DNA of 64,000 nt, taken from a virus. Below are positions 5,604-52,427 of the stretch, piece by piece (within the stretch, counting starts at the first letter, position 1; the number at the start of each line of letters is the position of its first letter). The stretch covers positions 160,001 to 224,000 of IMG/VR virus record IMGVR_UViG_3300045988_171958; one strand, given 5' to 3'. The position numbers and the translations under genes were made by a program. A model generated the notes under the pieces. The model was not told the origin of the DNA and ran no database searches. It worked only from the letters and a program-made list of their open reading frames with translations.

Positions 5604-5617
5604 ATATTATATAGATT

Positions 5618-5926
5618 ATGAGATATATCAATAGAAAAGTAAACTGGAAAAATGAATATGGGTTTTCATTTGAATGCTATATTGGTGAAAAGAGTCATAT
5701 CACCCAGTTCATGGTAGAACATAAAATGTTCCCAGGAAATAGAATAGTTGCTTATACAGAGATGCGACCAATGAATAAAGGATGGAATTCTCCTAACTCA
5801 TTGGATATTAAAGTGACAATTTCTAATGGTGGACATGTTGTTGATCAGTTTGTTATTGACCAAGGTACATTTTGTAAAATTATGTCAAATGTTTATTATG
5901 ACAGAATTTCAAAATCATTGAATTGA
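5618..5926 (+). CDS. hypothetical protein (102 aa)
   Basis: ORF followed by a hairpin. Confidence 0.5.
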   Translation: MRYINRKVNWKNEYGFSFECYIGEKSHITQFMVEHKMFPGNRIVAYTEMRPMNKGWNSPNSLDIKVTISNGGHVVDQFVIDQGTFCKIMSNVYYDRISKSLN

Positions 5927-5930
5927 TACA

Positions 5931-5958
5931 ACAAAGGATGGTAATTACCATCCTTTGT
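5931..5958 (+). terminator. stem-loop ACAAAGGATGG-taatt-CCATCCTTTGT
   Basis: 11-12 bp stem just after stop 5926; weak T tract. Confidence 0.5.
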
Positions 5959-5970
5959 TCGTATAAATAA

Positions 5971-6000
5971 TTTGAAATTTTTCATTTTATTTCTATTTTA
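5971..6000 (+). promoter_or_regulatory. repeated promoter cassette TTTGAAATTT-N12-TTCTATTTTA
   Basis: TTTG at 5971, CTAT at 5993 (offset 22), upstream of ATG 6026. Confidence 0.65.
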
Positions 6001-10129: not shown

Positions 10130-11350
10130 ATGTTAAATTTAACACAATATGTACAAATCTTTGAAGGAGGAATGAGTAATCACATGTCAAGACCTTATGA
10201 TTTCCCTGAACTTACCTTAAAAGATTTAAGAGAAATAGTATTGTCAGTATTTGGCTATTCTGATCCAGTCGAATTTACAGAGAAGTTAGATGGTACTAAT
10301 ATTCAGGCATCTATGAATAATCAGAATGAAGTGATATTCATAAGAAATAAAGGTGACTTGAATTCTGAACGCGGTGGCATGTCAGTAGAAGATATGGCTG
10401 AAAAATGGAAAGATAAACCAGGTGTACAAAAAACATTTGTTTCTGCTGGTAAGATATTAGAAAGAATATTCAAAAGAATAGGTAGTAATTTCTTCAATCC
10501 AGATCCTAATACTAGATTATTTGCAAATTGTGAATGTATTGTTGCTGGTAAAACAAATATCATGCCATATATTGATGATAGTGTTGATTTTCATAATATC
10601 TGGGTATACAAAAAAGAAGGTGATGAATGGAAAAAGGATAAAGTTACTAGAGATGGATTAGATACTATAGAAAAAGCTATAGATAAAGATGATAAGGCTC
10701 AGCTTACTCCTAAATTGATAATGAAGGTAAATGACCAATCAAGAAAAATAGCTACTAAATGGTGTGATGAACTAAACAAACTTTGGAAACAAGAAGGATT
10801 AGGTGAAGATGATACATTACAAACTTGGGAACAATCTAGATTTAAGAAGATTGCACCAGAATGGATGACTGATGAAGATGGAGCAATATTCAGAAGATGG
10901 TTCCTTATGGATAAGTCAGTAAATATGAGAATATTGAAAAAGACTTATAAAGATCATGTTGATGAATTAGCAGAACTTGATAAAAAAGGTTATAAGAAAT
11001 ATGTAAGTGATGTAATGGGACCTATTGATAAGATGTTCATCAATCTAGGTACTGATGCAATAAATATGATACAAGGACTTACTAATTCTATAACTGATGA
11101 GCAAGCAAAGAAAGTAAAGAATGAACTTATATCAGATTTGAATACAGTAATAGATAAAGTAAACAAATCTGATGATATGGAATTAAAAGCAAAGCTTGCA
11201 TTAGAATTGTCAAGATTAGGAGATATGAATACAAATATTCATGATACTGAAGGTATTGTGTTTACTTGGAAAGGTAGAATGATGAAACTTACATCAGGAT
11301 TTGGTCCTGCAAATCAAATAATTAATTTACAATATAAATTAAATAAATAA
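10130..11350 (+). CDS. ligase-superfamily nucleotidyltransferase (RNA-ligase-like) with CTS-like N-terminus (406 aa)
   Basis: N-terminus MLNLTQYVQIFE|G; FTEKLDGTNI (KxDG motif I); LFANCECIV (motif III-like); TEGIVFTWKGRMMKLT (EGxV / KxK-like). Motif spacing is atypical. Confidence 0.5.
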   Translation: MLNLTQYVQIFEGGMSNHMSRPYDFPELTLKDLREIVLSVFGYSDPVEFTEKLDGTNIQASMNNQNEVIFIRNKGDLNSERGGMSVEDMAEKWKDKPGVQKTFVSAGKILERIFKRIGSNFFNPDPNTRLFANCECIVAGKTNIMPYIDDSVDFHNIWVYKKEGDEWKKDKVTRDGLDTIEKAIDKDDKAQLTPKLIMKVNDQSRKIATKWCDELNKLWKQEGLGEDDTLQTWEQSRFKKIAPEWMTDEDGAIFRRWFLMDKSVNMRILKKTYKDHVDELAELDKKGYKKYVSDVMGPIDKMFINLGTDAINMIQGLTNSITDEQAKKVKNELISDLNTVIDKVNKSDDMELKAKLALELSRLGDMNTNIHDTEGIVFTWKGRMMKLTSGFGPANQIINLQYKLNK

Positions 11351-11757: not shown

Positions 11758-13251
11758 ATGGCTACAGGATTATGCTACACTCAGAGTGGTAATGTTAAGA
11801 GATATGAAACGGATCAATGGCATGGATTTGCAACTACAGGTAAACCAGTATTAAGTGCATATGGGTTACCTGTAAATAATTTCAATATGGTCACCTGGAT
11901 ATTTAATTCAAATTACCATAAAAATGATCCTGTTGTTTTAAATGATACTTATTTTAATTATAGTATGAATAAAACATTATTTACAATTACTAAAGAACCA
12001 TCATCTACAAGTTATAAATATGAAGTAAGTTATACTAATTTTATTGATGATAATTATATTAATGATCTTAAACAACATATTATTGATAATTTTAATATCC
12101 AAACAAAACAAAATATAGATGATTATAATTTGACATATTATAATCCAAATATACTTAGTACTTATGAAACGAGTTATTCAATAATTCAATCCACATATAT
12201 ATTTAATTCTATAAAAGTATATTATCATAATATAGGTAATTATATTAATGTTAATAAATCTTCCTTATTCAGTGATAATTTTAATGGGTTTATAATTTAC
12301 AAACCAAAGCCTTTAAAATTATTTAATATATCTAGTGTATTATTTTCACCAGTGGTTTATATTAATGATGATACAAATGAAAAAATTTTTAACAAGGAGA
12401 TACAAATACAAAGTTTATGGACATTACCAATTCCTAAATTTGATGTGATTTTTACTACTGAATATAATAATGAAACTTATAAATACACACATAAAGATTA
12501 TAAATTTTCAAATAATCCTCCATTCCAAGATTTAAATATAAAAGTTAGTGATAATAAGAAATTAGGAAACAGTTTTATGGTAACATTACCTCCAATAGTC
12601 ATAAATGAAGATAATGGCAAAACAATAGAATATAATGGAACTAATCTACCAAATTTGAAAAATTTTACTTCTAATTTGGATTCAATAACACTATCAAATG
12701 GTAAAATTCTTTGGGCTCAAACTAATTATATGTATGAGTTAGTAGTAAAAGGATCTTTCCAAAAATCATACGAAATAATTAAATATGATACAAATTATGT
12801 TTTACATCAAATAAACCCAATAAGTTATGTTCAATTATTTATTAAAGATTTACCTGATTATTATTTAATAAATGTTAACTATGAAAGAAATATTAATGAC
12901 CCAATAAATGCTAGTAATGTAAGTATAATTTGGAATGTTAAATCTTATAAAAATGGTAAAATTTTACAATCATATATACCAGGAGGAATAATAGATGATT
13001 TAAATTTTTCAATTGAATTTGATTTCTCTGTGATTAATTATTCATATAGAGAAAATGAGATAATTAATGAATCTTCAACTGAAGAAGGTAAATTTTCAGC
13101 AGATATAAATGTATCATATCCTTTAAATAATTTATATGATTTTACAAGTGATTTAGATTATGAAGGTAATGGATATGATTATGTAGCAAGTATTGAACAA
13201 TTTACATACCCAAACAAGAGTCATTCTGGTATAGAAATTAAATGGAAATAA
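11758..13251 (+). CDS. Asn/Tyr/Ile-rich protein (497 aa), function unknown
   Basis: Long uninterrupted ORF in the most AT-rich part of the window; followed by a bidirectional palindrome. Confidence 0.6.
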   Translation: MATGLCYTQSGNVKRYETDQWHGFATTGKPVLSAYGLPVNNFNMVTWIFNSNYHKNDPVVLNDTYFNYSMNKTLFTITKEPSSTSYKYEVSYTNFIDDNYINDLKQHIIDNFNIQTKQNIDDYNLTYYNPNILSTYETSYSIIQSTYIFNSIKVYYHNIGNYINVNKSSLFSDNFNGFIIYKPKPLKLFNISSVLFSPVVYINDDTNEKIFNKEIQIQSLWTLPIPKFDVIFTTEYNNETYKYTHKDYKFSNNPPFQDLNIKVSDNKKLGNSFMVTLPPIVINEDNGKTIEYNGTNLPNLKNFTSNLDSITLSNGKILWAQTNYMYELVVKGSFQKSYEIIKYDTNYVLHQINPISYVQLFIKDLPDYYLINVNYERNINDPINASNVSIIWNVKSYKNGKILQSYIPGGIIDDLNFSIEFDFSVINYSYRENEIINESSTEEGKFSADINVSYPLNNLYDFTSDLDYEGNGYDYVASIEQFTYPNKSHSGIEIKWK

Positions 13252-14732: not shown

Positions 14733-14741
14733 TTATTATAT

Positions 14742-14781
14742 ATAAATTTTAATCTTCCGGTATAAATTTTAATCTTCCGGA
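14742..14781. repeat. about 20-bp tandem duplication (TATAAATTTTAATCTTCCGG x2) spanning the thyX stop
   Basis: Read directly: ...ATATAAATTTTAATCTTCCGG TATAAATTTTAATCTTCCGG ATAG... Confidence 0.85.
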
Positions 14782-15599
14782 TAGATCTTGACACCTTGCT
14801 CTTTGAACAACAAATATATCTTATTTGCTAAATCGTAAGCTAATGGGTGAGGTTTACCAGTAAGACCTTTCATGCGTAGATCAAAAAAATGTTCCCAATC
14901 TTTTGTAGTACCACTCATCACCAATTCCGTAGCTGTTGAATTAGGAAGTACAGTAGCTGCTTCTTGTGCATTGCAACCCATCTTACATAACTTAAGATAT
15001 GAATATTCTGCACGTTCCATCTGCTTTACCCATTCATCATATACCTCATTTGAAATCAAGAACTTTCCAAATGCTGGTTTCAAGAACTTAAGCTCATTAT
15101 CAAACTTATCTTTACCATAATTACAATAGCGAGATGACTCTTGGTTGAAACTGAATACACGATGGCGTTCAAACTCATTTGCAATCTGACGATTAGTTAT
15201 CATTCGTACAGTAATTCGTCTGATATGGTTTATTGGTTCATAAGCACACTGATACTTAAGTACATCTTCCATTTCGTTTTCAACAATTACTCTATAGTTA
15301 GTAGTAACATAACAATAATTGCCATCACTATTTGTTTCACTATATTTGTTGAATGAAAAGAACAATGCATCATCTCTCTTACTTCTTGGCAGCTTAAGAT
15401 AGATAGTACAATGTTCCAATGTTGACAAATGTTCTGAATCAATCATTCTAGACACGAACTTTTCTGCGCTACCTTCTGTTATGAGATTCAATGACTTATA
15501 GCAAGTTCTGCCTGCAATTTCTACAATCTTCTTACCTTCTTCAAGTGTTGCTTCACCTAAACTTAAAATCTCTGCCGTTTGGTTATCAATTACCTTCAT
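14769..15599 (-). CDS. thyX: flavin-dependent thymidylate synthase ThyX (276 aa)
   Basis: ThyX signature FERHRVFSFNQESSRY (RHRxxSxxxxSxR). Confidence 0.85.
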   Translation of the reverse strand: MKVIDNQTAEILSLGEATLEEGKKIVEIAGRTCYKSLNLITEGSAEKFVSRMIDSEHLSTLEHCTIYLKLPRSKRDDALFFSFNKYSETNSDGNYCYVTTNYRVIVENEMEDVLKYQCAYEPINHIRRITVRMITNRQIANEFERHRVFSFNQESSRYCNYGKDKFDNELKFLKPAFGKFLISNEVYDEWVKQMERAEYSYLKLCKMGCNAQEAATVLPNSTATELVMSGTTKDWEHFFDLRMKGLTGKPHPLAYDLANKIYLLFKEQGVKIYPED

Positions 15600-24879: not shown

Positions 24880-26439
24880 ATGATAATTGACAGATTTTGG
24901 TTAAGAAAGAATCAGACGTATTATATTTTCTATTTGGATGAAAATGGTAACAGAAAATGCTATTCAAAACAAATGCATCATTGGAAAACTTATGAGTACA
25001 ATCCAAATGGAAAGAAGTATACATGGGATGGTAAGAAATGTGATGTGGTATTCAAAGATGCATCTAAGTATCAACCGAATGAATTTGATCAGCTGGAATT
25101 CTTGTATAATTTGCCAGAAGATATCTATAAGGAAGTAATGGCAATGAGATTTCCACGAATCTACTTTTCTGATATAGAGACTGAAATTTCGGATGAATTT
25201 CCAGAACCAGAAAAGGCGGAACAAAGAATTCAGTTGATAAGTCTTGTTGGTCCAGATTTGTCAGTAATGGTATTAGGTATCAAACCATTGAATTCTGATG
25301 AACAAGAAGAATTGAAGGAAAGATACCTTAAATATATAGAAGATAATGATTTTGCAAAAAACCTAATAAAGAAAAAAGGTTTTACACCAAAAGTATATTA
25401 TCAATATTTTGAAACTGAGGAATCAATGATTGAACATTGGTTCACTAGAATAATGCCAAAGATTGGTTGTTTAGCTGGATGGAACTATTATAGATTTGAC
25501 TGGAATTATATTTGGAATAGAACAGTAAAGTTGTTTGGAAAGTTCAAAGCAATGCAATTGATGAGATCTGCCAGTGTTGTTGGAGAAATCAATAAGATTT
25601 CTTGGTCAGAGATGGATGGTACAAAATATAGTATTCCAGCACCACAAGGTTGCATGATATGGGATTATATGGAGCTCATCAAATCTTATGAATATTCAAT
25701 GAGACCTTATGAGTCATATTCATTGGATTGGGTTGGTAGTCATGGTGTTAATGCTCATAAAGTAAAATATGAAGGAACAATGAAGGAATGTTATGAAAAT
25801 GATTTCCCATTGTTTGTTTACTATAATGCTATCGACTCTTGTTTGAATGCTTTGATTCATTATCGTTTCAAATGTATTGAAAGTCCATGTTCTATGGCAA
25901 CAGTAACAGGAATTCCAGCTCAGAAAGCATTAGGTCAGGTGGCTTTGACCACAGCAAATCTGTTCAGATGTTTTTATGATGAAGATCGACATGTTGTATG
26001 GGATTATGATGCTGTTGAAAGAACAAAAGTAAATTATGAAGGTGCTTTTTGTGGATGTGTTCCTGGTCGTTGGGAATATAGTGTATGTGATGACTTTGCT
26101 TCACTTTATCCATCAGTGGTTCGAACTTGCAACATATCAATGGAATCCATTATTACAAATAAAGTAGGTCCAGATAGTCTTGGAAGATATACAGAAATTC
26201 CATGGACAGAAGAAGAGCTTGATAAATTCAGAAAAGACCCTAATTATTTCGTGTCATTGCAAGGAACTGTATACAGAAATGACAAAGAATTCATGTTCGC
26301 TAAAATGCAAAGAATTCAAAAGGAGCGTCGAGATCACTTCAAATATCTCAATTGGTCATTACAAGGCCCAGTAATGATGGAAGTTGATCGACTTATAAAG
26401 ATAAGAGAAAAGGAAAGTAAATGTCAAAAGAATGGATAG
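24880..26439 (+). CDS. family B DNA polymerase, N-terminal part only (exonuclease domain through motif A; 519 aa)
   Basis: Exo I FSDIETE, Exo II GWNYYRFDWNY, Exo III YYNAIDSCL, Pol motif A DDFASLYPS. No KxxxNSxYG or YGDTDS motif before the stop. Confidence 0.85.
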   Translation: MIIDRFWLRKNQTYYIFYLDENGNRKCYSKQMHHWKTYEYNPNGKKYTWDGKKCDVVFKDASKYQPNEFDQLEFLYNLPEDIYKEVMAMRFPRIYFSDIETEISDEFPEPEKAEQRIQLISLVGPDLSVMVLGIKPLNSDEQEELKERYLKYIEDNDFAKNLIKKKGFTPKVYYQYFETEESMIEHWFTRIMPKIGCLAGWNYYRFDWNYIWNRTVKLFGKFKAMQLMRSASVVGEINKISWSEMDGTKYSIPAPQGCMIWDYMELIKSYEYSMRPYESYSLDWVGSHGVNAHKVKYEGTMKECYENDFPLFVYYNAIDSCLNALIHYRFKCIESPCSMATVTGIPAQKALGQVALTTANLFRCFYDEDRHVVWDYDAVERTKVNYEGAFCGCVPGRWEYSVCDDFASLYPSVVRTCNISMESIITNKVGPDSLGRYTEIPWTEEELDKFRKDPNYFVSLQGTVYRNDKEFMFAKMQRIQKERRDHFKYLNWSLQGPVMMEVDRLIKIREKESKCQKNG

Positions 26440-27458
26440 ATAATATATTGCTAAAGTTATTAGGTGATCACAATGGCCATCTAATAACTTCTTATTCTCA
26501 TAAATTTAAAATTGGAAAATATCCTAGGATATCTGAATATTTAAAAAATAGATTTGAAGAATTCATAACATATAGTGAAACTTATGCAAGAATTAAATTA
26601 AAAGTAGAAACTCACCCAGTATGCAAATATTGTGGAAAACCAACAAAATATGGTGGGTGGAAGCTTTTAAAGAAAACTGGTTTATTATATGGGAAATTTT
26701 GCTCTGCAAAATGTGCAAACATATATAATATTGATAAAGTAAAAGAAACGTGTAAGAAAAAATATGGAACCATTTCTGTTTCTCAAACCAAATGGTTTAG
26801 AAAACAAGTTGAGGAAACATCTTTAAAGAAATACGGTGCTAAATGTATTTTATCAAATACAGAAATAAGAGAAAAAATAAAAAATACTTGTAAAAGAAAA
26901 TATGGTGTTGAATATATTTCTCAATCTAAAATTATAATAGATAAAGTTAAAAATTCTTTACTATCTAAATATGGGGTTAAATGTGGTTATAATAAACCAG
27001 ATGTGATGGAAAGAATGAAATCTAAAGAATCACAATTAAAAAGAACTGAAGCTTTAAAAAGAAATAAAAGTTATGTAAAGTCGATTCCAGAAGAAAAATT
27101 AAATGATTTATTAGTAGAAAAATATGGTAAAGATGACATTGAAAGACAATTCATATCTAAAGAATATCCTTGGCATTGTGACTTCTACATTAAATCTTTA
27201 GATACATTTATAGAATTGCAAGGTATGTGGACACATGGTGGACATCCATACAACTTAAATTCAATAAAGGATCAAGTAAAATTACAACGGTGGCAATCAA
27301 AAGCCGACAATGGTTCAAGATTTTACAAGGGTGCAATAAAAGTTTGGACACAATTTGATGTGAATAAAAGAGAAACCGCTATCAAAAACAATTTGAAGTA
27401 TATAGAAGTGTTCGATAGTAGGAATTTTGAAATTCTTTACAATTTGTCTATATTATAG
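26421..27458 (+). mobile_element. free-standing homing-endonuclease-like gene, family copy 1 (345 aa)
   Basis: Zn ribbon CKYCGK..CSAKC; four tandem ~23-aa xxKKYGxxxxSQ repeats; C-terminal YPWHCDFYI...FIELQGMWTHGGH (Vsr/EDxHD-like core). Overlaps the polB fragment by 19 nt. Confidence 0.7.
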
Positions 27459-28120: not shown

Positions 28121-30004
28121 ATGGCAAAGACAATAGAACAAAAATATAAAGAATTATCAGAACAACAGCATGTGATCCTTCGCCCAAATATGTATGTAGG
28201 GTCTATTAAACCAGAACTTTCTACTCAGTTTGTTTTTGATTATAAAGAACAGATGATGGTACAGAAAGAAGTAGAATATGTTCCGGGTATTTTAAAGCTT
28301 ATTGATGAGGTTATATCAAATTCATGTGATGAATATCGTAGACCTGATAATCTTGGCCTTACTAATGTTTCTGTTACTGTAATGAAAGATAATACTATAG
28401 TAATAGAAGATAATGGTGGAATTCCTGTTGTTAAGCATAAAGATGCTGGCGTGATGCTTCCAAGATTTATTTTTGGTAGACTTCGTACTTCTTCTAATTA
28501 TAATGATGATGAAGATAGAGCAGGCCTTGGACAAAATGGAATTGGAGCTAGTTTGACAGCTATTTTTTCATCATATTTTGGTGTAATGACTGATGATGGA
28601 AAGAAGCGATGGCTCGGTAACTGGAAAAACAATATGTCTGAATTCTACGATGAGGAAATAGAAAAATCTTCTAAGAAGAATCATGGAACTAGGATTACAT
28701 TTCATCTTGACTTTTCTAGATTTGAAGGTATAGATAAGTTTGACAGAACATTCAAGGATATCATATTGACACGTTGTATCAATGCTGCAGCTGCTAATCC
28801 TGGATTGAAGGTAACATATAAAGATGTTGATGTATGTGGTGAATATAAGTTTGACAATTTCAAAGACTATATTGACTTATATAGAAACTATGTTACTTTG
28901 AAGGATTGTATAGAGATGAAAGATGAACATAAGCATGTCTATGTATATCCTGATGGAGCTATCAATATTGGATTTGTCAATGGAGGTATTTGCAATAAAG
29001 GTACTCATGTTAAAGCATTGCACCAAATCATCAATACTACTGTATGTGATTTTCTTAAGAAGAAAGATAAGATTGATTTGCTTCCACGACAAGTTGATGG
29101 CAACTATAGTATGTTTTGCGACTTGACTATTTCTAATCCATCTTATGATTCTCAGACTAAGGAATGCTTGACCACCCCTGTAGAGAAATTCTATAAAGAT
29201 GAAAATGTTAAGTTTGAGCTTCCAAACAAATTTCTTGATTCTGTTGTAAAGTCTGAAATCATAGATAATGTAAGAGATTGGTATAAGAAGAAATGTGAAG
29301 CAGAAGACCAACGTACTCTTCGTAAACTCAATAAAGAAGCAAGCAAAGGTCTTCGTCGTTCTGATAAGTATGTGACTTGTTCATCAAAAAAGAAACAAGG
29401 TAAGCAGCTTTGGATTTATGAAGGTGATTCTGCCGCAAGAGGTCTTCGTATTGGTAGAGATCCAGAAACCCAAGCTGGTTATGTAATGAGAGGTGTACCA
29501 CCTAACTCATTGGATATGTCGCCATTGCAGATTATGAAGAATGATGTGTTCAATGATATCATTACTATTTTAGGTCTTAAGTTTGGTGATGACTTCAATA
29601 TCAATGATTTGAAATTCGATAAGATTGTAATATCTACTGATGCAGATATTGATGGAGATAAGATTGCAGCATTGTTGCTTCTCCTTTTTTCTAGATGGCC
29701 AATTCTTTTTGAGAAGGGTATAGTATGCAGAAGCATTACTCCTATCATTATTGCAAAGAAAGGTAAAGAAGTAAAGAAGTATTATAGTCAAGAAGAATTT
29801 GATAAAGATGCAAGAAAGCTTAAAGGATATATGATTAAATACGTCAAAGGTCTTTCCGGTCTTGATGCATCTGAAACAAAGGAATCAATGAGAAACCCTA
29901 TCTTCATGCATTTCAAGATTGATGATTTGACAAAGTCAATGTTCAAGAAATGGTTTGGTAAGAATAGTAATGATCGAAAAGAAATGATGGGAGATTTAGT
30001 ATGA
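28121..30004 (+). CDS. type II DNA topoisomerase large subunit (GyrB/ParE-like; T4 gp39(+gp60)-like, 627 aa)
   Basis: GHKL motifs EVISNSCDE, EDNGGIP, GQNGIGAS; Toprim EGDSAA and STDADIDGDKI. Confidence 0.9.
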   Translation: MAKTIEQKYKELSEQQHVILRPNMYVGSIKPELSTQFVFDYKEQMMVQKEVEYVPGILKLIDEVISNSCDEYRRPDNLGLTNVSVTVMKDNTIVIEDNGGIPVVKHKDAGVMLPRFIFGRLRTSSNYNDDEDRAGLGQNGIGASLTAIFSSYFGVMTDDGKKRWLGNWKNNMSEFYDEEIEKSSKKNHGTRITFHLDFSRFEGIDKFDRTFKDIILTRCINAAAANPGLKVTYKDVDVCGEYKFDNFKDYIDLYRNYVTLKDCIEMKDEHKHVYVYPDGAINIGFVNGGICNKGTHVKALHQIINTTVCDFLKKKDKIDLLPRQVDGNYSMFCDLTISNPSYDSQTKECLTTPVEKFYKDENVKFELPNKFLDSVVKSEIIDNVRDWYKKKCEAEDQRTLRKLNKEASKGLRRSDKYVTCSSKKKQGKQLWIYEGDSAARGLRIGRDPETQAGYVMRGVPPNSLDMSPLQIMKNDVFNDIITILGLKFGDDFNINDLKFDKIVISTDADIDGDKIAALLLLLFSRWPILFEKGIVCRSITPIIIAKKGKEVKKYYSQEEFDKDARKLKGYMIKYVKGLSGLDASETKESMRNPIFMHFKIDDLTKSMFKKWFGKNSNDRKEMMGDLV

Positions 30005-31038
30005 CAGATATTGAAATAATAAATGCATATAAAGATAAAACTAAAATTTATTTTGTAGGTATGAAAGAAGAAATTAAATCATATCTACAAAATAGATTTA
30101 ATGATAGTGATTCTATAAAAGAAAGTTTTTATAGAGTTATGAATAAAATATATGATAGACCAACATGTAAATATTGTAATGGACATGTTAAATTTGTTTG
30201 GAAAGAAAAAAGATTTTTAAAATATTGTTGTTTATCATGTAAAATGAAAGTTGAATCTCCATTTAAAAGAAAAGAAATACAAAATAAAATAAAAGAAAGA
30301 AATATTGAAAAATATGGAGTAGACAATGTTTTCAAATTAAAAGAATTCCATGATAAATCTAAACAAACAAAATTAGATAGATATGGGGATGAAAATTATA
30401 ATAATAAGGAAAAATTTAAAGAAACATGTTTAAAGAAATATGGTGTAAATGCTCCATCACAAAATAAAGAAATAAGAAGAAAACAAATTGAAACTTCAAT
30501 AAAAAGATATGGGGGTGTATTCCATAAAGAAGAAGTTTCTAAAACAATTAAAAGAAAATACGGGGTTGATTGGTTTGTATATTCAGATAAATTAAAAGAA
30601 AAGGCAAATAGTGATGAAGCCCATTATAAAGCATATATTACTAAGAAGAAAAATAAATCTTTTGGACCTCAATCAAAAATGGAAAATATTTGTTATTTAT
30701 ATCTTAGTTTATATTATCCAGATATAATAAGACAATATAGAGATAATAAAAGATATCCATATAATTGTGATTTTTATATACCATGTTTAGATATGTTTGT
30801 TGAATTTCAAGGATATTATACACATGGTACACATCCTTATAATAAAAATTCTATTAAAGATCAAGTAATATTAGAAAGATTTAAGTCAAAATATAAAGAT
30901 TGGAAGAAACTTCCACAAATTATATCAACATGGACAATTAAAGATGTAGAAAAAAGAAATTTTGCTAAACAAAATAATTTGAATTATAAGGAATTTTTTA
31001 CTATTGATGAATTAAAAGATTGGTTAGAAAATGGATAA
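30001..31038 (+). mobile_element. homing-endonuclease-like gene, family copy 2 (345 aa)
   Basis: Same architecture: CKYCNG..CLSC, about five (K/R)YG repeats, YPYNCDFYIP..FVEFQGYYTHGTH. Start overlaps the upstream stop (ATGA) and its stop overlaps the next start. Confidence 0.7.
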
Positions 31039-32437
31039 GAAAAATAAAGATAAAGTAATAATTAAAAAAAATATAGATAAAAATGTTACAGAGTTTCTTA
31101 ATGTTGATTATCTAAATTACAGTTTATATACCATATCTTCAAGGGCTATTCCTTCTATATGTGATGGGTTTAAACCAGGAGCAAGAAAGATTGTACATGC
31201 AATGTTTGAAGGATCATTAAAAAATGGTGCAACAACAAAATTACTTGCACTTGTTGGAGATACAATGAAAATATCTCTTTTTGCCCATGGAGATCAAAGT
31301 CTTATTGGTAGTATATGTACATTGGCTAAAGCTTTTTATAACTTTTATAACCCACTAGAAATCGAAGGCCAAGGAGGATATCTTCGTAGTCCAGAAGCTG
31401 GAGCACCTCGATATCTATATATAAGAAAGTCAAAGTATGCAGACTTAGTATACAAGACAGATTATGATTTGCTGAAGTATGTATTTGAAGAAGGTGATTA
31501 TGTTGAACCAGAACATTACCTTCCTATTGTGCCAACAGTTCTTTCTAATACAACTATGGGTATTGCTAATGGATATTCTTTCCATAGCAATGCTTGGAAT
31601 CCAGTAGATGTGCTTGATTGTTGTTTAGAGATTCTCAAAAGTAAGAAAGGTGTAGAAAAGTTTAAGACAGTTGTAAGACCTTATTTGAGGGATATCCCAC
31701 AAGACAATTGGAAGTTAGAATCTGGTCAGTGGTATTGCTATGGTGAATGGAAGACAAATCAAGCAAAAGATCTGATGACAATCACTAATTTGCCATCTGA
31801 TACTACTTATGTTGAATTTGAAAAATTGCTGAATAGACTTTGTGACAAACAAGAAATCAAAGACTATAAAGACTTGTCAGAAGATGGCAATGTACATTAT
31901 GAAGTACAATTCTTCAAAGGTCAACTTGCAAAAGAAATCAAATCAGATAGGTCAGGTAAGAGATTAGCTAATAAGTTCAAGCTCATTAAGAAACTTCCAG
32001 AAGATTTGCTTTGGTTGCTTGATGAGAATGGTAAGCTCAAATATTTCAAAGACAGATATGAAGTTATCAGATATTTTGTAAATTGGAGATTGTCTGTTTA
32101 TGTTGAGAGAAAGAAGAAGCTTGTAAAGATACTTGAAGAGAAATACAAGAACAATTCGGAATTGGTAAAGTTCATTGAACTTGTATGTAAAGGTAAGCTT
32201 AAGATTCGTAACAGAAGTAAGGTTGATATCAAACCAGATATGGATGCACAACACTTACCAATGGCATTGTTAGCAACACCTATGTCAAAAGTAACTATAG
32301 AAGAAAGAGATGAACTTTTGAAGCAGAATGAGGAAATTAAAAAGCAACTTGAATACATTAAGAATACAACAGAAAAGCAGATGTATATAAATGACTTGCA
32401 GTCATTGAAGCAATCCTTGTTAAAGGATTTTAAATGA
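31031..32437 (+). CDS. type II DNA topoisomerase cleavage subunit (GyrA/ParC-like; T4 gp52-like, 468 aa)
   Basis: SSRAIPSICDGFKPGARKIVHA (GyrA N-terminal signature) and GAPRYLY (catalytic Tyr context). Confidence 0.8.
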   Translation: MDKKNKDKVIIKKNIDKNVTEFLNVDYLNYSLYTISSRAIPSICDGFKPGARKIVHAMFEGSLKNGATTKLLALVGDTMKISLFAHGDQSLIGSICTLAKAFYNFYNPLEIEGQGGYLRSPEAGAPRYLYIRKSKYADLVYKTDYDLLKYVFEEGDYVEPEHYLPIVPTVLSNTTMGIANGYSFHSNAWNPVDVLDCCLEILKSKKGVEKFKTVVRPYLRDIPQDNWKLESGQWYCYGEWKTNQAKDLMTITNLPSDTTYVEFEKLLNRLCDKQEIKDYKDLSEDGNVHYEVQFFKGQLAKEIKSDRSGKRLANKFKLIKKLPEDLLWLLDENGKLKYFKDRYEVIRYFVNWRLSVYVERKKKLVKILEEKYKNNSELVKFIELVCKGKLKIRNRSKVDIKPDMDAQHLPMALLATPMSKVTIEERDELLKQNEEIKKQLEYIKNTTEKQMYINDLQSLKQSLLKDFK

Positions 32438-39284: not shown

Positions 39285-42200
39285 TTATTCTCCAAGAATA
39301 GTAGAATTCATCTGACCTGTACGATACAGAGTCAACTCATGTACCATCTTACCCATACCACGACCTGGTTCAATATGAGTAGACAAGATAGCCATCTCAT
39401 TATCAATAATATCAGGTGTGTTGTTAGAGTCATCCATGACATTCAAGTAAGCTTGAATACCACCATTAGCTTGAACTCTAGCACAGATAGAATCAGCACG
39501 ATCCTTAATCTTATTACGTACGGTTTGGTTGTTGAACTCCCATTGATAAGACTGAAGAATCTTCTCAACTTCATCCATGATGTAGATAACCAACTCACGA
39601 ACGTTAACAGAACTCAATGCTGACTTAGGTGTCTGCTTAGCAGTTTGGTTAGCATTGATGAATGTACCGAAGCTTGGGCGGTATACCATACAATTTACAC
39701 CAAAAGGTTCAATTATGTTGAGTTCATCACCACTATAATTGTAATCAGGACCAACAAGACCAGATACTGACATTGCACCATAGTTAGGACCAGCTACAAT
39801 TTCATAAGGAAGACGAGAATTGTACTTCTCCATGAACAAGTTAGATACAAGACCTGCAGATGGAACAACAGAATCAATAGTACCATCAGAAAGCTTCAAT
39901 GGAGTATAGAAAGCTGCAAAGCTAGCACCTTCATCATTTGATGGAAGAGAGAATGCTGTTGTATGAGCTTTCTTCTTATTGAATCCATCAACTACATATT
40001 GTACATTGAATACTCCCTTAGCATCAGTAAATGAACTGTATGGACACTTTACAAATGTCTTAACAGAAGGGAAGTTCAGAATAGCGAATGCATTTTGCTT
40101 CTGCTTAGCGAGATAAGAAAGTACCTTCTTAGCACCTGCATCAACATAAGTTTCGAAACCATCGATAACATATCTGAAGTCAATTTCTGACTTATTCAAA
40201 AGACCTGTACGAAGACCTTTGTATTCAGTCAAAGCTGATAACTGGAAGTTCTGCCATTCAAGCTTAGCACGTTGACCAACTCCATCTGGCTTTGGATGTT
40301 CGTAAGTATAACCCTTCAAGTATACAGGTTCCATAGTACCAATTTCTTGGTTCAAACCATTTTCAATACGAACAAGATACTTACCATAAGTTGTTGCATT
40401 TTGTGCGGCTTTCTTGATCCACTCATTAGTATTAGCTACCAATGTAGAATAACCAACTAAGTAATGACCAGTCTTTTTTGTACCATTTTCAGTATATTCT
40501 GCTGTAGTACTGTTATAAGCTGTCTTTTCAGAAGTAGAAAGCTTACCGTAATCTTCTACAGAAATTGGCTTAATCTTTTGATATTCAGCATTAGTATACA
40601 TAACTACTTCCTGACCAAAGTCAAATGTTGGATTAGTATACATTGCAACATAATATCCGATTTTATCAGTACCATCATGTTTCAAAGTAATGGTATTTGC
40701 AGTGATTTTGTTAGTATTATCTACCTTCAAATCAGGATTAGCAAAACCATCTACATAGAAAGTACCGTCATTTGTTAGAACTTCAATAGGTTTCTTAAGA
40801 CCATCTGCAGTAGCATTCAATTGTTTGATATCATCATAAATGAATGTATAAGAATCAAGTTCTACATATTTATAGTCTGCTTTTACATCACCAGTTTTAG
40901 TAGAATCAGGAAGAGCTTTATATGCTGCACCTGTTATATTGTCTTTACTTGGATCTGTTGTTGCAATCTTATGATAATGATAGTTCTTAGTACACATGTT
41001 ACGTGCATTAGCACTCAACAACATGTATTCTACACCGGTAACTTGCTTAGAAAATACGATAGCAGAAGATTTGAATCCATCTTTATTCTTTGCTACTTCA
41101 TAAGCTTCAGCAGTCAAAGTTCTAGGTCCTACATGGTTGTAAGAAACTGCCCAATTCTTAGGATTGTAGAGCTTCTGTTCTTCTGTATCAAGCAACTTGT
41201 ATTCACCATTAGAAATAGTTACGTCCTTGTCAGATTTGCTAGCACCTTCATAAGTAGCGATATTACCAGTGAACTTAATAGAGTATGTTTTAGGATTACC
41301 ATATTCATCAGTGATAGTTTCTGCTTCTTGAACATAACAAAGGTCATAATAACCGTTAATAACTTCATCAGAATAGTCACCATCACCATCCATATCAATC
41401 TTACCATCTACTGCTAAGAACTGATCACCCTTCTGAAGCATAGCAAGAATAGTAGTATCAGCTGTAGCAGGAGCAGTCAAATGATATGTATGTACAGCAT
41501 CTTCATCTTCTTCATCATATACATCAGCTGACAATGTCCAGTGTTCATTCAATGGAATGAATGTTACAGATGGGCCATATACATTCCAAGAAGCATACTT
41601 GTTAGTTGTATCAATCAATGTATCTGGGTTCAAATATTCTGTCTTTGTAGTAATGTAAACATCTTCGATGTTACACTTAACAACTTCAGAACTCAAGATT
41701 ACCATAGCGTCATTTGTACTATCCAAATCTCTAGAAAGAGAAGTAATCACTCTCTTAGGACCATCAACATTCTCAGGTTTATTATAAGCGTCCGTCGATG
41801 TGTAAACTGTACCAAGACCTGACTCAAATGAAACATAAGTAGTTTCACCATCAACTGTCTTCTTGTAAGCAGCACCAAGTTCATAAAGAACATAGTTTAC
41901 GTTTGGCTTATCAACCATACTTAAATCAATAGTGATACGTTGAGTTGAACCAACAGCACCAAGAATAATGCCTTTATCGGTCCAAGACTGAACATACATA
42001 TTACCACTGATCTTCTTGGTTTTCTTATAAGAAAGAGGATGCTTGATAGTATCTTCATCTGACCAGATGTTTGTACGGAAATGTGTCTTAGCAGAAACAA
42101 CTGGAGCACCAACATTACCAAGAAGTGATGTTAAAGCAGTACCCTTCCAAAGTCTGTCGATACAAACAATGCTAGTACCATACTGCTTGTAAATCTTAGC

Positions 42201-43330: not shown

Positions 43331-44488
43331 ATGAAAACAAATCATGATAAAATTATAGTAAAAATTATTTGTGGACAAAATAAAGGAAATATTTCAAGAT
43401 TTAAAATATCTAAAATAAAAGATAATTATCCAAATATATTAAATTATATAAAAACTAGATATAAAGATAGTAATTCAATAAATGAAACTATTAATAGAAT
43501 GAAATTTGGTGGTCCAGAAATAGTACCAAAATGTCCAGTTTGTGGAAAACCAACAATTTATAAATATAAAAATATATATACATTATATTGTTCTCATGAA
43601 TGTGCTTATAAATCTAAAGAAGTATATGAAAAGAAAAAACAAACTTCATTAAAACATTATGGAGTATCTCACCCAATGAGATCAAAAGAAATAAAAGAAA
43701 AAGTAAAAAATACTAATATTGAAATTTATGGTGCAAAAACATTTGCTGAATCAAAACTTGGTAAAAAATATTTTGAGGAAAATAAAGAATTATTAGTTAA
43801 AAAAACAGAAGAAGGTATATTTAAAAAATATGGTGTTAAAAGTTATCAACAATCAAAAGAATATCAAAATAAAAAAGATGAAATATTAAAAAAAAGAAAA
43901 GAAACAAATTTAAAAAGATTTGGAGAAACTTCTTATTCAAAAACCAATGAATGGAAACAATCTTTTCAAAATAAAAAGCAAGAGATGTTGGAAAAAATGA
44001 AAGAAACATGCCTTAAAAAATATGGAAGAGAATGGTATTTTCAAACAGAAGATTCTAAACAAAAAAATTATATTACACAAAAGAAAAATGGTACATTTGG
44101 AAAATCTAAACCTGAAGTTGAACTTAAAAATTTTCTATTAAATTATTTTCCTGATTTAATATATCAATATAAATCAAAAGAATATCCATGGAAATGTGAT
44201 TATTATATTCCTACATATAAACTTTTTATAGAATTACAAGGTTCTTGGTGTCATGGAAATAAACCTTATGATCCAAATGATGAAGAATGCATTGAATTAG
44301 TTAATTTATGGAAATCAAAGCCAAATGGATTTTATAAAAGAGCATTATATGGATATACAATAGCTGATGTTAAAAAACGTAATTGGGTAAAAACTCATAA
44401 ATTAAATTTTATTGAAATTTTTGATTATTCTGATTTTAATAAAATTCTTAATAATATTAATACATATATCAAAATGCATCAAATGTAA
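43331..44488 (+). mobile_element. homing-endonuclease-like gene, family copy 3 (385 aa), opposite strand to the structural genes
   Basis: CPVCGKP..CSHEC, multiple (K/H/I)YG repeats, YPWKCDYYIP..FIELQGSWCHGN. Confidence 0.7.
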
Positions 44489-44516
44489 ATATTTAAACTA
44501 TTTTGGAATATATACA

Positions 44517-44548
44517 AAAAGAGAGATTCCTTAAGGAATCTCTCTTTT
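44517..44548. terminator. bidirectional intrinsic terminator
   Basis: AAAAGAGAGATTCC-ttaa-GGAATCTCTCTTTT between convergent genes. Confidence 0.75.
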
Positions 44549-44566
44549 CTATGTTTACATTTACCA

Positions 44567-49624: not shown

Positions 49625-51334
49625 TTAAAAGACTTGTTCATATTCGGATGCATGTACTATTACTTGACCCGTACATAAACTTTTCTTAATGTTTTCTTTA
49701 TTGATTTTCTTATTCTTTACACTTACTCTTATCTTATGGTCAAATCTGTCATCAGGCATAGGACCATGATTGATAATTATGATAGTTCTGTTGTTTGCCA
49801 TAGAAGTTTGAAGCATTTCCAACATCATATCTTTCATATTGTCATCCATATTTGAAAAGAGTTCATCAAGTCCTATTATATTAAAATTAACATTTGCAAT
49901 AACATTCTGAAGAATTCCAAATATAATACAAATATCTAAGGTCTTCTTCTGACCAGTTGATAAGTCTTTATATGAAATTTCTTTTTCATTATTATCAATG
50001 AATATGTGGCACTTGAATTCCTGGTCAAACTTGACAGAATAGTTTTGTTCAAGCTTATTGAGATACTTAGATATTGAATTGTTGATATGAGGTATCATAG
50101 AATCAAGCAACTTGTATCGTAATGACTTAGTGAACAATTCTGACAAATCATTCCATTCACCTTGTTCTAATTCATTATCTAATGATTCTTGTTGTAATCT
50201 CTCTAACTTGTCTTTAGCTTCTGATATCAAATTATCAAAATTATCTTTCATTAACTTAAGATTAGAATTGTAAGTTGATACTTTAGTATCAATAGAATGG
50301 ATTTCAGATTTGATATCAGAAATCAATGTATCATATTTCTTGTTTACTATATCTATCTTATCATTTATAGATAGAATTTCTTTAGATACTTCTTCTATCT
50401 TATCATTCCAATCATGCCAAACTTTAGCATAATCATTCATTTTATTGAGATATTCATCTATTTTTGATTTCTCAATATCATGACCACATGTAGGACATTT
50501 ACCTGATTTGAATTTCTCATACATCTGTTTCTGTTGCTTTCCTAAAGTAGCTGCTTCTGTACGCTTATCAACAAATTCAGATTTCTTTTTCTCTAATTCT
50601 CTTTTTTGCTCTACTATTGTATCAACTTTTTGCTTATGTTCTTCTTTTACAGATTTTCCTTGTTCAATCAAGTCATTTCTTCGCTTGTCCAATCCTGTTA
50701 TATCTATTGATGTAGCAAGTTTCTGTTGCTGATTTTCTTTCTTCTTTTTTAAAGATTCTATCTGATTAGAAGTTTCTTGTATCAATGCTTGCAATTCTGT
50801 TCCTCTTTTTGCAACATCTCTTCTTTCTTCAACTACTTCATCATTATAAGTAGTAAAAGTCTTAAAACCAAATACATCATCCAAAAAGCATTTTGTTTGA
50901 AATGGGTTCATGCTTGCTAATGACATAAACTGGTTGAACGATATGATGCACATTCTTTCTATTGCAATTCTTGGTACATCATAATATTCTTCTAGGATTT
51001 TCTGATAATCATTCTTAGATGGTGCTTGCAAATCCTTTCCGTCTATTTTTGCTACCATTTCAGAATAACAAGATCTAGAAATATAAATATCATGCTTTCC
51101 AGAAGTAAGCCATAATTCAACTTTATAGTCTTTAGTATTCCAAGCAATCAAATTTGGGTTCTTATGATCTTTTATGGTACCATAAAGACCAAATAGAATA
51201 GAATTTAATAGCATGGTTTTTCCACTTCCAATAGGACCAGAAAGCTTAATCATTCCCTTTAATTCATTAAAATTAAATTCATGAACCCCATATAAAGATC
51301 CAAAATTTTTTATTCTTATTTTATTTATTATCAT
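49625..51334 (-). CDS. Rad50/SbcC-like recombination ATPase (T4 gp46-like, 569 aa)
   Basis: Walker A GPIGSGKT, central coiled coil with CPTCGH zinc hook, signature LSTGQKK, Walker B IIGLDELF. Confidence 0.85.
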   Translation of the reverse strand: MIINKIRIKNFGSLYGVHEFNFNELKGMIKLSGPIGSGKTMLLNSILFGLYGTIKDHKNPNLIAWNTKDYKVELWLTSGKHDIYISRSCYSEMVAKIDGKDLQAPSKNDYQKILEEYYDVPRIAIERMCIISFNQFMSLASMNPFQTKCFLDDVFGFKTFTTYNDEVVEERRDVAKRGTELQALIQETSNQIESLKKKKENQQQKLATSIDITGLDKRRNDLIEQGKSVKEEHKQKVDTIVEQKRELEKKKSEFVDKRTEAATLGKQQKQMYEKFKSGKCPTCGHDIEKSKIDEYLNKMNDYAKVWHDWNDKIEEVSKEILSINDKIDIVNKKYDTLISDIKSEIHSIDTKVSTYNSNLKLMKDNFDNLISEAKDKLERLQQESLDNELEQGEWNDLSELFTKSLRYKLLDSMIPHINNSISKYLNKLEQNYSVKFDQEFKCHIFIDNNEKEISYKDLSTGQKKTLDICIIFGILQNVIANVNFNIIGLDELFSNMDDNMKDMMLEMLQTSMANNRTIIIINHGPMPDDRFDHKIRVSVKNKKINKENIKKSLCTGQVIVHASEYEQVF

Positions 51335-52427
51335 GATTAATAAAATGTTTTACTTCATCTAAATTAAAAAATTCAATGTAATTCAAATGATTTATTTTTG
51401 CAACTTTTCTTTTATATGGATCTCTTTCTGTCCATATTTGTATTGCATTCTTATATAGAATTTTATTTTCATTTTCATATTTATATTTCCATTTATTAAC
51501 AATGTTACTATCTTCTTCCGATTCAGGATTATAAATATGGTCGCCATGTGTCCAATATCCATTGAATTCAATAAACAAATCTTCACTAGGAATATAAAAG
51601 TCACAATTAAATGGATATCGATTACTATTATATTGTCTTATTACATCCTTATATTTTAATTTTAATAATTCAAAACATTTATCTTCTTTTTTAGATCTTT
51701 TATAAGATCCATTTTTTATTTTAGTTTGAATTATTTTATTTTGTACTTCCGGATCAGATAATTTAATTCTTAAATTTTCTCTTGCTTTAGGACATTGATT
51801 ATAATATTCATATCCGTATTTAATTAAATTGGTTTGTTTAGTTTTTTCTTTACATTTTTCAGATGATAAAGATATTTGGGCTTTTTTCCTTATATCTTCA
51901 TCACAAAAGAAATTTGCATAGCCATATTTTCTAAGTCTTGTTTCTTCTGATTTCTTTTGAATTTCTTTGGAAGAAAGAACACATTTTACTCCATATTTTT
52001 TTAAACAAGTATTTTCTTTTTTATTTTTGATTTCTTTTAATTGGAATGGATTTTCTGTACCATATTTATTCTGCCAAGTCATTTTCATCTTGGTAATTAT
52101 ACCTGGTATACCTTTACCATATTTTTTTAACCTTGTTTCTGCAATATGAATACCAACTAAATTAGATTTTTTCTTACAATCATTAGAACAATATGTCAAA
52201 TATACTAATCCAGGATGTCCATTAAATTTACAATTTTTACCACATACTGGGCACTTTGGAATTTCTTCTATATTATATTTTATTCTATATACAGTTTCTT
52301 TATAAGAGTTAAATTCTTTAAATCTATTCTTTAAATATTTTTTAACTTCATCTGTAAAAGATTTCTTATTTAATTTTAATCTTTTTTTAAAAAATTCATT
52401 AATTATATATTCATCATTGATTTCCAT
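51321..52427 (-). mobile_element. homing-endonuclease-like gene, family copy 4 (368 aa)
   Basis: CPVCGKN..CSNDC, KYG repeats, YPFNCDFYIP..FIEFNGYWTHGDH; overlaps the gp46-like start by 14 nt. Confidence 0.7.

Follow-up and report, generated by a model that had tools for sequence, protein, structure and literature searches.

A diversified family of putative free-standing homing endonuclease genes with a Vsr-like nuclease domain and tandem KYG repeats in a jumbo phage genome

We analysed a stretch of viral DNA of 64,000 nucleotides (nt), positions 160,001 to 224,000 of the IMG/VR record IMGVR_UViG_3300045988_171958; this whole stretch is referred to as the window. Its source is a jumbo phage of myovirus-like type, rich in AT and with core genes of the T4 type, whose nearest kin by capsid protein are uncultured megaphages, Sphingomonas phage PAU, and jumbo phages of Bacteroidota. 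An earlier note, made from the letters of the sequence, had described the open reading frame (ORF) at 26421-27458 as one of four paralogous genes resembling homing endonucleases. Our analysis indicates that the four ORFs are very likely free-standing homing endonuclease genes (HEGs) of a single diversified family, whose products combine a Vsr-like nuclease domain with a putative DNA-binding array.

Four paralogous genes between conserved phage genes

The four genes are numbered here in the order in which they occur; the terminator next to the third gene is included.

26421..27458, plus strand: HEG1, the flagged gene; 345 amino acids (aa); 19-nt overlap with the 3' end of the preceding N-terminal DNA polymerase fragment
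30001..31038, plus strand: HEG2; 345 aa; between the genes for the large and medium subunits of topoisomerase II, with overlaps of 4 nt and 8 nt
43331..44488, plus strand: HEG3; 385 aa; inverted, between the major capsid and tail sheath genes
44516..44549: bidirectional terminator hairpin, common to HEG3 and the capsid gene
51321..52427, minus strand: HEG4; 368 aa; between a gp47-like (Mre11-type) and a gp46-like (Rad50-type) gene; 14-nt overlap with the start of gp46

The ORF list places the four genes where the earlier note had put them, and their paralogy and common architecture were confirmed by tblastn searches of each protein against the window and by a four-way alignment. Pairwise identities are 31-37%, with E-values of 1e-37 to 1e-51. 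No fifth paralogue was detected in the window beyond noise when all four proteins were used as tblastn queries. Every protein begins with a helical box, which is followed by a C4 zinc ribbon, a run of KYG repeats (about 23 aa each), and a nuclease domain at the C-terminus. The motifs in the four-way alignment are YLKNRF...S..E..YRI for the box, CxxC...C(x2-3)C for the ribbon, and YPxxCD(F/Y)YIP....F(I/V)E(L/F)(Q/N)G.W.HG for the nuclease core.

The composition of the genes sets them apart from their neighbours, as had been claimed. Their GC content is 21.2-26.8%, compared with a mean of 31.7% for the 53 other ORFs, and they are four of the five ORFs with the lowest GC content among the 57 ranked. 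Lysine makes up 15.9-18.2% of their residues (mean, 9.9%), which places them as the four most lysine-rich of the same 57 ORFs.

All four proteins matched phrog_3339, and three of the four matched phrog_12131; both profiles are annotated as 'homing endonuclease'. An NCBIfam scan of the proteins returned nothing above noise. Across the whole window no Rfam family reached its gathering threshold, and no tRNAs were found. Because Rfam finds no intron, the four genes are considered free-standing; an association with an intron or intein was ruled out by the zero Rfam hits together with the complete flanking ORFs.

A Vsr-like nuclease domain and a basic repeat array

The domains of the proteins are given below for HEG1, in HEG1 numbering.

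26421..26615, plus strand: N-terminal helical box, aa 1-65, with YLKNRF..S.E..RI
26622..26714, plus strand: C4 zinc ribbon with C68, C71, C94, and C98; a YacG / FCS-like pattern, CxxCGK...CSxxC
26715..27080, plus strand: KYG array (Pfam DUF7487) of four units, with anchors at aa 114, 137, 160, and 183 at an exact spacing of 23 aa
27081..27455, plus strand: Vsr-like (EDxHD) nuclease domain with S221-x-x-E224, D254, E265, H272, D313, and K316

Conservation was judged over 58-69 sequences. The alignment called A2 contains the window proteins and 54 metagenomic homologues (58 sequences), and conserved family positions are numbered as in HEG4 unless HEG1 is stated. In the nuclease domain, S245, E248, Y271, D276, Y278, H294, D336, and K339 are invariant, and E287 is present in at least 90% of the sequences. 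The equivalents of the catalytic-motif residues E248, D276, E287, H294, and D336 are all retained in each of the four window copies. Outside the nuclease domain, P57, C59, C62, and C80 are invariant in A2, and C84 is conserved in at least 90%.

The EDxHD family is defined by residues equivalent to those of Vsr, with an acidic residue at the position of Vsr F62; I-Bth0305I carries an Asn at the position of Vsr H64, and the Hef-type phage endonucleases have been assigned to the same family (Taylor et al. 2011, PMC3239194). The composite motif of the family, E...D...(x)...H...D, which matches E25, D51, H69, and D97 of Vsr, is present in the window family. Using hhalign, E248, D276, E287, N289, and H294 fell into register with E25, D51, F62, H64, and H69 of E. 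coli Vsr, respectively; the score against this single sequence was weak (E 0.13). The domain profile matched two Hef-like proteins in hhalign: EST35_0312 of phage PA5oct, which splits that phage's DNA polymerase (E 1.9e-6, probability 90%), and SJ_13 of Proteus phage SJ_PmiM (E 3.1e-6, probability 88%). The PA5oct protein was also matched by the nuclease domain in tblastn (E 2e-4). The earlier note had likened the C-terminal core to those of Vsr-like / EDxHD-type nucleases. The invariant catalytic residues, the exact Vsr register, and the hhalign E-values of 2e-6 to 3e-6 to the Hef-like proteins agree with that assignment, and these comparisons support the membership of the domain in the Vsr-like / EDxHD-Hef superfamily.

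An AlphaFold2 model of the C-terminal 139 residues (alignment A3) had a predicted local distance difference test score (pLDDT) of 93.3 and a predicted template modelling score (pTM) of 0.81. The modelled order of secondary structure elements, alpha-beta-beta-beta-alpha-alpha-beta-alpha, is that of a PD-(D/E)xK-type core. In a Foldseek search of the Protein Data Bank (PDB) with this domain, the top match was the Vsr-DNA complex 1cw0_A, which was not significant (E 0.29, probability 0.77; template modelling score 0.43-0.48). With the whole protein 1cw0_A again came first (E 0.71, probability 0.60). In these searches 1vsr had an E-value of 0.92, and 3R3P was not listed. The remaining weak matches are likewise PD-(D/E)xK nucleases, namely VRR_NUC, RecE, Hjc, and influenza PA-N. 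PDB chains were also searched by sequence, with one protein or a profile as the query; all matches were sub-threshold, to the phage exonuclease 3k93 at the CD.YIP...IE motif and to YacG at the zinc ribbon.

The proteins might instead be site-specific DNA-binding regulators or Vsr-like nickases, which make no double-strand breaks and do not home. Vsr, a relative in fold, nicks DNA in mismatch repair, and two homologues are annotated by the Joint Genome Institute (JGI) as 'G:T-mismatch repair endonuclease'. However, there is no dcm-like partner, the Pfam Vsr match stays below threshold, and intergenic presence/absence polymorphism with recoded flanks, as described below, would be unexpected for a repair enzyme. 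The EDxHD enzyme I-Bth0305I, moreover, is a dimer that cleaves beside the insertion site of its intron (PMC3239194). We consider a regulator or nickase very unlikely. The Vsr mismatch-repair enzyme proper (PF03852) was rejected: Pfam matched HEG3 only, below the cutoff, no gene for a cytosine methyltransferase is found in the vicinity, and relatives do without the HEGs.

The N-terminal half of the proteins is dominated by the KYG repeats. A Pfam search had been proposed in the earlier note for both the repeat and the C-terminus. It assigned the repeat region to DUF7487 (PF24308), with scores of 61.4, 56.6, 46.1, and 45.5 bits for the four proteins (gathering cutoff, 27), but matched Vsr below the cutoff and in HEG3 only (16.9 vs 27 bits). 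Besides DUF7487, sub-threshold Pfam matches were to YacG and zinc-ribbon families. An idealised 23-aa consensus repeated five times scored 132 bits against DUF7487. The window proteins contain 4-5 clear units each, with a canonical anchor spacing of 23 aa and variants of 17-36 aa; the tandem arrangement of KYG units of about 23 aa thus stands as first described, but the original count of 4-6 was slightly generous. Across 124 family members, the number of KYG anchors per protein ranges from 2 to 12 (mode, 5) and is correlated with protein length (r = 0.79); across the family, neighbouring anchors lie 23 aa apart in 415 cases and 19 aa apart in 93.

The repeat consensus (23 aa) is K-Y-G-V-E-N-P-L-Q-S-E-E-I-K-E-K-I-K-Q-T-C-L-E. 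Entropy over 415 units showed Y2, G3, K16, and T20 to be nearly fixed and K1, V4, K14, K18, and L22 to be moderately conserved, while the other positions vary. TRF (Tandem Repeats Finder) detected no 69-nt period in the DNA, so the repeats are old and diverged; a recent duplication of repeats at the DNA level was rejected on the same result. The net charge of the zinc ribbon and repeats together is +19 to +24, and that of the nuclease domain is +4 to +7. To judge from the sequences, the strong positive charge of the former fits nucleic-acid binding.

An AlphaFold2 model of the whole protein, built on alignment A2, had a mean pLDDT of 90.8 and a pTM of 0.55; the latter value is as expected if the domains are flexibly linked. 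In the model each 23-aa unit is predicted to form one helix of about 15 residues that ends at the Tyr; next come the Gly and a short loop containing a 3-10 turn. Whole-protein Foldseek detected no analogue of the repeat region in the PDB.

Occupied and empty sites, recoded tracts, and homing

Related contigs were collected in three ways. L001 and L002 were taken from the contig whose HEG4 is 98% identical; L003-L008 were retrieved from IMG/VR with gp46 as query, and L009-L016 with the topoisomerase large subunit (topoL) as query. Occupancy was scored at eight intergenic sites in 8-9 related contigs whose flanking proteins are 90-99% identical. L016 is a more distant relative (49% identical). 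The sites are named by the genes on either side; polN is the N-terminal polymerase fragment and topoM the topoisomerase medium subunit.

gp47/gp46: occupied in the window (HEG4), L001, L002, and L008; empty in L003, L004, L005, and L007
gp46/baseplate gene: occupied in L004 only; empty in all others
orf93/prohead protease: occupied in L001, L002, and L008; empty in the window and four others
capsid/sheath: occupied in the window (HEG3), L001 and L003 (35-39% identical to any window HEG), and L007 (opposite strand); empty in L005
o23807/polN: occupied in L009 only; empty in all others
polN/o114: occupied in the window (HEG1) and, by a 50%-identical gene, in L009; empty in six others
o97/topoL: occupied in L012 and L015; empty in all others
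topoL/topoM: occupied in the window (HEG2) and, by a 37-39%-identical gene, in L009; empty in six others

Every one of the eight sites is thus filled in some genomes and empty in others, and at four of them, empty in the window, family members are found in relatives. HEG1 and HEG2 are both missing in L010-L015. The proteins that flank the HEG4 site are 94-99% identical between occupied and empty genomes. At least 12 lineages of the family occur in the sample, no two of which are more than 54% identical. Copies at the same site in different genomes, in contrast, are 98-100% identical, including HEG4 over four contigs. The capsid/sheath site holds three to four different lineages in both orientations. 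Judged from the occupied and empty sites among close relatives, these patterns show the genes to be mobile. In L006, a more distant relative (gp46 78% identical), the gp47/gp46 site contains an unrelated ORF of about 250 aa (about 5255-6000) and no KYG nuclease gene; genes of more than one kind thus insert at this hot spot.

Between topoL and topoM of L016, positions 11205-11309 contain a remnant of about 35 aa that is 71% identical to the C-terminus of HEG2 and that, by its sequence and position, is a decayed copy at this site. Such a remnant, together with the well-known cycles of HEG decay, would be expected if the window genes were relics as well, that is, once mobile but now inactive pseudo-enzymes. 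This explanation is hardly credible for the window, where all four copies are full length and carry every invariant residue, and HEG4 is 98-100% identical over four contigs.

We compared the genes flanking the insertions between occupied and empty alleles. The following stretches of the window differ from alleles of HEG-less relatives.

51185..51334, minus strand: HEG4-linked recoding of the 5' end of gp46; covers the first ~150 nt, among them codons directly behind Walker A
31031..31150, plus strand: recoded 5' end of topoM, linked to HEG2; first ~120 nt
26356..26373, plus strand: 18-nt variant patch upstream of HEG1, at the 3' end of the polymerase fragment

Over nt 1-150 of gp46, occupied and empty alleles are 66-87% identical per 30-nt window, whereas the empty alleles are 94-98% identical among themselves. 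On the upstream side of the gp47/gp46 site, alleles with and without HEG4 hardly differ until 13 nt before the point of divergence. The first 47 codons of gp46 contain 12-13 non-synonymous and 14-26 synonymous changes, after which the alleles return to near identity. Just after Walker A, GKT-SLLEA of the empty alleles is replaced by GKT-MLLNS in the occupied ones. A HEG4 orthologue (69% identical) occupies the same site in a phage with a 67%-identical gp47, and the gp46 of that phage shares the GKTM(I/L)LN variant.

The topoM tract is more divergent: over nt 1-120 its identity to empty alleles is 35-75%, compared with 91-100% among the empty alleles. The largest difference lies at nt 91-120, where ATVGD is changed to YTISS right before the conserved RAIPSICDGFKPG motif. 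L009 topoM is altered at the same spot, though the HEG of L009 belongs to an unrelated lineage. At both the HEG4 and the HEG2 sites the excess divergence is confined to the downstream gene, and the upstream flanks show none. Similar tracts were found in relatives, upstream at gp46/baseplate gene and orf93/prohead protease and downstream at o97/topoL. A tract was also looked for at o23807/polN in L009, and none was found.

At the HEG1 site, the 18-nt patch has 61% identity in its 30-nt window to three HEG-less alleles, and the HEG-less L012 and L015 share the patch; it is a weak candidate for an immunity patch. HEG1-less relatives have an intergenic spacer of about 100 bp with a hairpin in place of HEG1. 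In a comparison of spacers with the HEG-less L005, HEG3 was found to replace the spacer that separates the capsid terminator from the sheath gene. With 1323 aa, the tail-sheath-like ORF (39285-43256) is of unusual length. The family-B DNA polymerase ORF that precedes HEG1 (24880-26439, 519 aa) comprises the exonuclease domain and the motif A region only, and PHROG 2062 is a 'DNA polymerase' profile of about 500 positions that matches only this fragment. In HEG1-less relatives the fragment ends at the same point and is followed by the hairpin, and the C-terminal half is not adjacent; the split of the polymerase is therefore independent of HEG1.

We infer that the gp46 and topoM tracts are cleavage-immune or co-converted and mark the likely target regions. 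The putative target of HEG4 would lie at nt ~100-150 of gp46, around GGGAGTGGCAAAACAAGCCTGCTGGAAGC, and that of HEG2 at nt ~80-125 of topoM, around TATTCACTCGCAACAGTAGGGGATCGTGC. In the proposed mechanism, the basic N-terminal half (box, zinc ribbon, and KYG array) would bind an extended stretch of DNA, and the C-terminal Vsr-like (EDxHD / Hef-type, PD-(D/E)xK-derived) domain would make the double-strand cut. During co-infection by phages with and without the HEG, the enzyme would cut the HEG-less allele in or near the conserved neighbour gene. Recombinational repair off the HEG-carrying genome would then copy in the HEG together with the adjoining recoded tract, and the recoded tract would protect the carrier from its own enzyme. 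The identity of the genes as homing endonucleases, as proposed in the earlier note, is supported by the matches to PHROG 3339 and 12131, the sporadic presence at intergenic sites, and the recoded tracts beside occupied alleles.

Nuclease genes have been described at boundaries of exchange, a pattern matched by the window tracts, and HEG islands with cargo genes have been described for ICP1 phages (PMC10055350); the arrangement of HEG1 and HEG2 resembles the latter. The nucleases could be domesticated and serve the phage by excluding co-infecting relatives, by degrading host or competitor DNA, or by setting recombination boundaries as HEG islands. As in the islands described by Barth et al. (PMC10055350), o114-o97-topoL lies between HEG1 and HEG2; the HEGs sit close against essential genes, their start and stop codons overlapping, catalytic residues are intact in all four copies, and an orthologue has been kept at one site despite a flank identity of about 67%. 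However, close relatives without each gene appear intact, so none of the HEGs is essential. A sporadic distribution, many lineages, and recoded tracts beside the genes are the marks that selfish homing leaves, and marker exclusion in T4 is itself a by-product of homing. We therefore regard domestication as unlikely and selfish, free-standing HEGs as the better description of the four genes.

Several observations weigh against this description. Clear recoded tracts are present at two of the four window sites; the HEG1 patch is ambiguous, and HEG3 was judged by spacers only. The tract lies upstream at some of the relatives' sites and downstream at others, and the tracts could instead mark recombination boundaries that are unrelated to self-immunity. 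The links to the solved structures of Vsr and I-Bth0305I are weak (Foldseek E 0.29; Pfam Vsr 16.9 bits vs 27), and a hidden Markov model search of PDB sequences with the 58-sequence profile gave no match to Vsr or 3R3P at E<=10. No mention of DUF7487 or PF24308 was found in the papers searched.

Module exchange and comparison with known systems

HEG1 and the gene at 7442-8338 of L009, which occupies the same polN/o114 site, are about 93% identical over their last ~125 residues (the nuclease domain), but identity drops to about 25-30% over the N-terminal halves, and the array of the L009 gene is shorter by two repeats. The L001 and L003 genes at the capsid/sheath site form a mosaic in the opposite sense. 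These two mosaics indicate that the array and the nuclease domain are exchanged as modules. Between HEG4 and its same-site orthologue, the repeats are 60% identical, the nuclease domain 67%, and the box and zinc ribbon 82-83%.

The earlier note had suggested that the repeats look like a modular DNA-binding array that might encode target specificity. The basic charge, the range of 2-12 repeats, and the exchange of the array apart from the nuclease are in line with the modular part of this suggestion; a code in which each repeat reads part of the target is neither shown nor favoured. Per-position entropy over the 415 units revealed no isolated hypervariable pair of residues, and the units are degenerate. 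Two different arrays occupy one site (polN/o114). The degenerate units, the low conservation of the repeats relative to the other parts of orthologues, and the presence of two arrays at one site lean against a simple code like that of transcription activator-like effectors (TALEs). It is quite improbable that the KYG units form a modular DNA-reading array in which each unit touches DNA at a constant step, a variable face (positions 5-9, 11-12, 19, and 23) contributes specificity, and the number and order of units set the target. By analogy with known enzymes, a distributed, low-information recognition that reads the DNA backbone or shape appears more likely. I-TevI is similar to I-Bth0305I in its distributed reading of DNA. 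I-Bth0305I has a footprint of ~60 bp over which specificity is evenly spread (PMC3239194).

The closest characterised system is I-Bth0305I (PDB 3R3P, PMC3239194), which likewise combines N-terminal DNA binding with C-terminal Vsr-like catalysis and is phage-borne and selfish. It also shares the E, the D, the acidic residue at the position of Vsr F62, the Asn at that of Vsr H64, the H, and the D. In contrast to the window genes, which are free-standing and encode a zinc ribbon and DUF7487, it sits in a group I intron of recA and has two NUMOD2 / helix-turn-helix (HTH) motifs. In Pfam and NCBIfam searches the window proteins showed just DUF7487 and weak zinc-ribbon matches, and no NUMOD2 or HTH. 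These motifs are a trait of the I-Bth0305I prototype and not of the whole EDxHD family; the Hef-like members differ from the prototype too.

The Hef-like endonucleases of T4-related and jumbo phages are free-standing as well, lie between or inside conserved replication genes, and have homologous catalytic cores. SJ_13 of the T4-type Proteus phage SJ_PmiM (L021, 580-1959) also has the zinc ribbon PKCxCGKP...CSxKC and, ahead of its nuclease core, one TCMDKYG unit, which suggests that classical Hef proteins and the KYG family may share more than the catalytic domain. Unlike the window family, which ends with the nuclease domain and has 4-5 KYG units, the Hef-like proteins have a central nuclease followed by a C-terminal domain of about 200 aa and zero or one KYG unit; the PA5oct protein carries a different Cys/His repeat. 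The seg and mob HEGs of T4 resemble the window genes in being intergenic and sporadic, in having their target in a neighbour gene, in the co-converted or recoded flank, and in the interchange of HEG types at one site. Their catalytic folds (GIY-YIG, HNH) and DNA-binding modules, however, are unrelated.

I-TevI, like the window proteins, has small modules (a zinc finger and short Lys-rich helices) strung along a long DNA site, and by eye the unit motif S-E-E-I-K-E-K-I-K resembles its segment HSDITKSKISEK (SDITKSKIS). A protein annotated as NUMOD3 in BFVD was a weak structural match (E 7.5e-4). Kinship with NUMOD3 or I-TevI was not supported: NUMOD3 was absent from the Pfam matches listed for the proteins and from the 25 of 35 Pfam families listed for the idealised repeat, and hhalign against I-TevI was unsupportive (E 0.09-0.11), the alignment falling away from the NUMOD3 helix. 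TALE and BurrH proteins also consist of tandem helical repeats of fixed length and variable copy number that are fused or can be fused to a nuclease. TALE repeats, however, have 33-35 aa, are near-identical, and carry a hypervariable pair, whereas the KYG units have 23 aa and are degenerate, with four fixed positions.

The family is widespread. A word-indexed search returned 1,089 homologues at E<=1e-5, nearly all of them unnamed and two named 'Vsr' by JGI. An exhaustive profile search returned 28,322 cluster representatives (clustered at 50% identity) with E<=1e-3; a cutoff of E<=1e-30 left 7,680. In tblastn searches, each Prevotella Lak megaphage had 5-10 copies, and other jumbo phages also carry copies. 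Structural neighbours in BFVD include proteins of Klosneuvirus, Marseillevirus, and an iridovirus. In long members of the family (up to 1127 aa), no other catalytic domains fused to the array were found, just more DUF7487. The kind of element is already known, and databases tag the family as a putative homing endonuclease; new with respect to characterised systems is the DNA-binding architecture of a zinc ribbon and a variable KYG array.

Three other features of the window were recorded. The ORF at 11758-13251 (497 aa, 22.8% GC) lies in the deepest GC trough outside the HEGs; it was rejected as a member of the KYG family, is matched by neither Pfam nor PHROG, and may be a further gene of foreign or mobile origin. 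Within the prohead protease / scaffold gene (46474-48051, minus strand), positions 46918-47217 hold 6-7 tandem units of 36 nt, each coding for 12 aa (EQYSPEVQKWIV-like). A perfect 20-nt tandem duplication at 14741-14780 (TATAAATTTTAATCTTCCGG x2) covers the short gap between two minus-strand ORFs and reaches the 3' end of ORF 14769-15599; a regulatory role is possible.

No solved structure, literature, or experimentally studied member is known for the array half of these proteins, yet it belongs to a very large family with members in jumbo phages, Lak megaphages, and giant eukaryotic viruses. If the units did read DNA in a modular way, the array would be a TALE-like programmable scaffold with a unit about two-thirds the size of that of a TALE, swappable onto a compact Vsr-like nuclease. 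The exchange between array and nuclease shows that each half can evolve apart from the other, as engineering would require. Because occupied and empty alleles occur naturally for at least eight sites, with enzymes of at least 12 lineages, concrete candidate targets can be named. For the phages themselves, homing would explain the local mosaicism in essential genes such as gp46 and topoisomerase.

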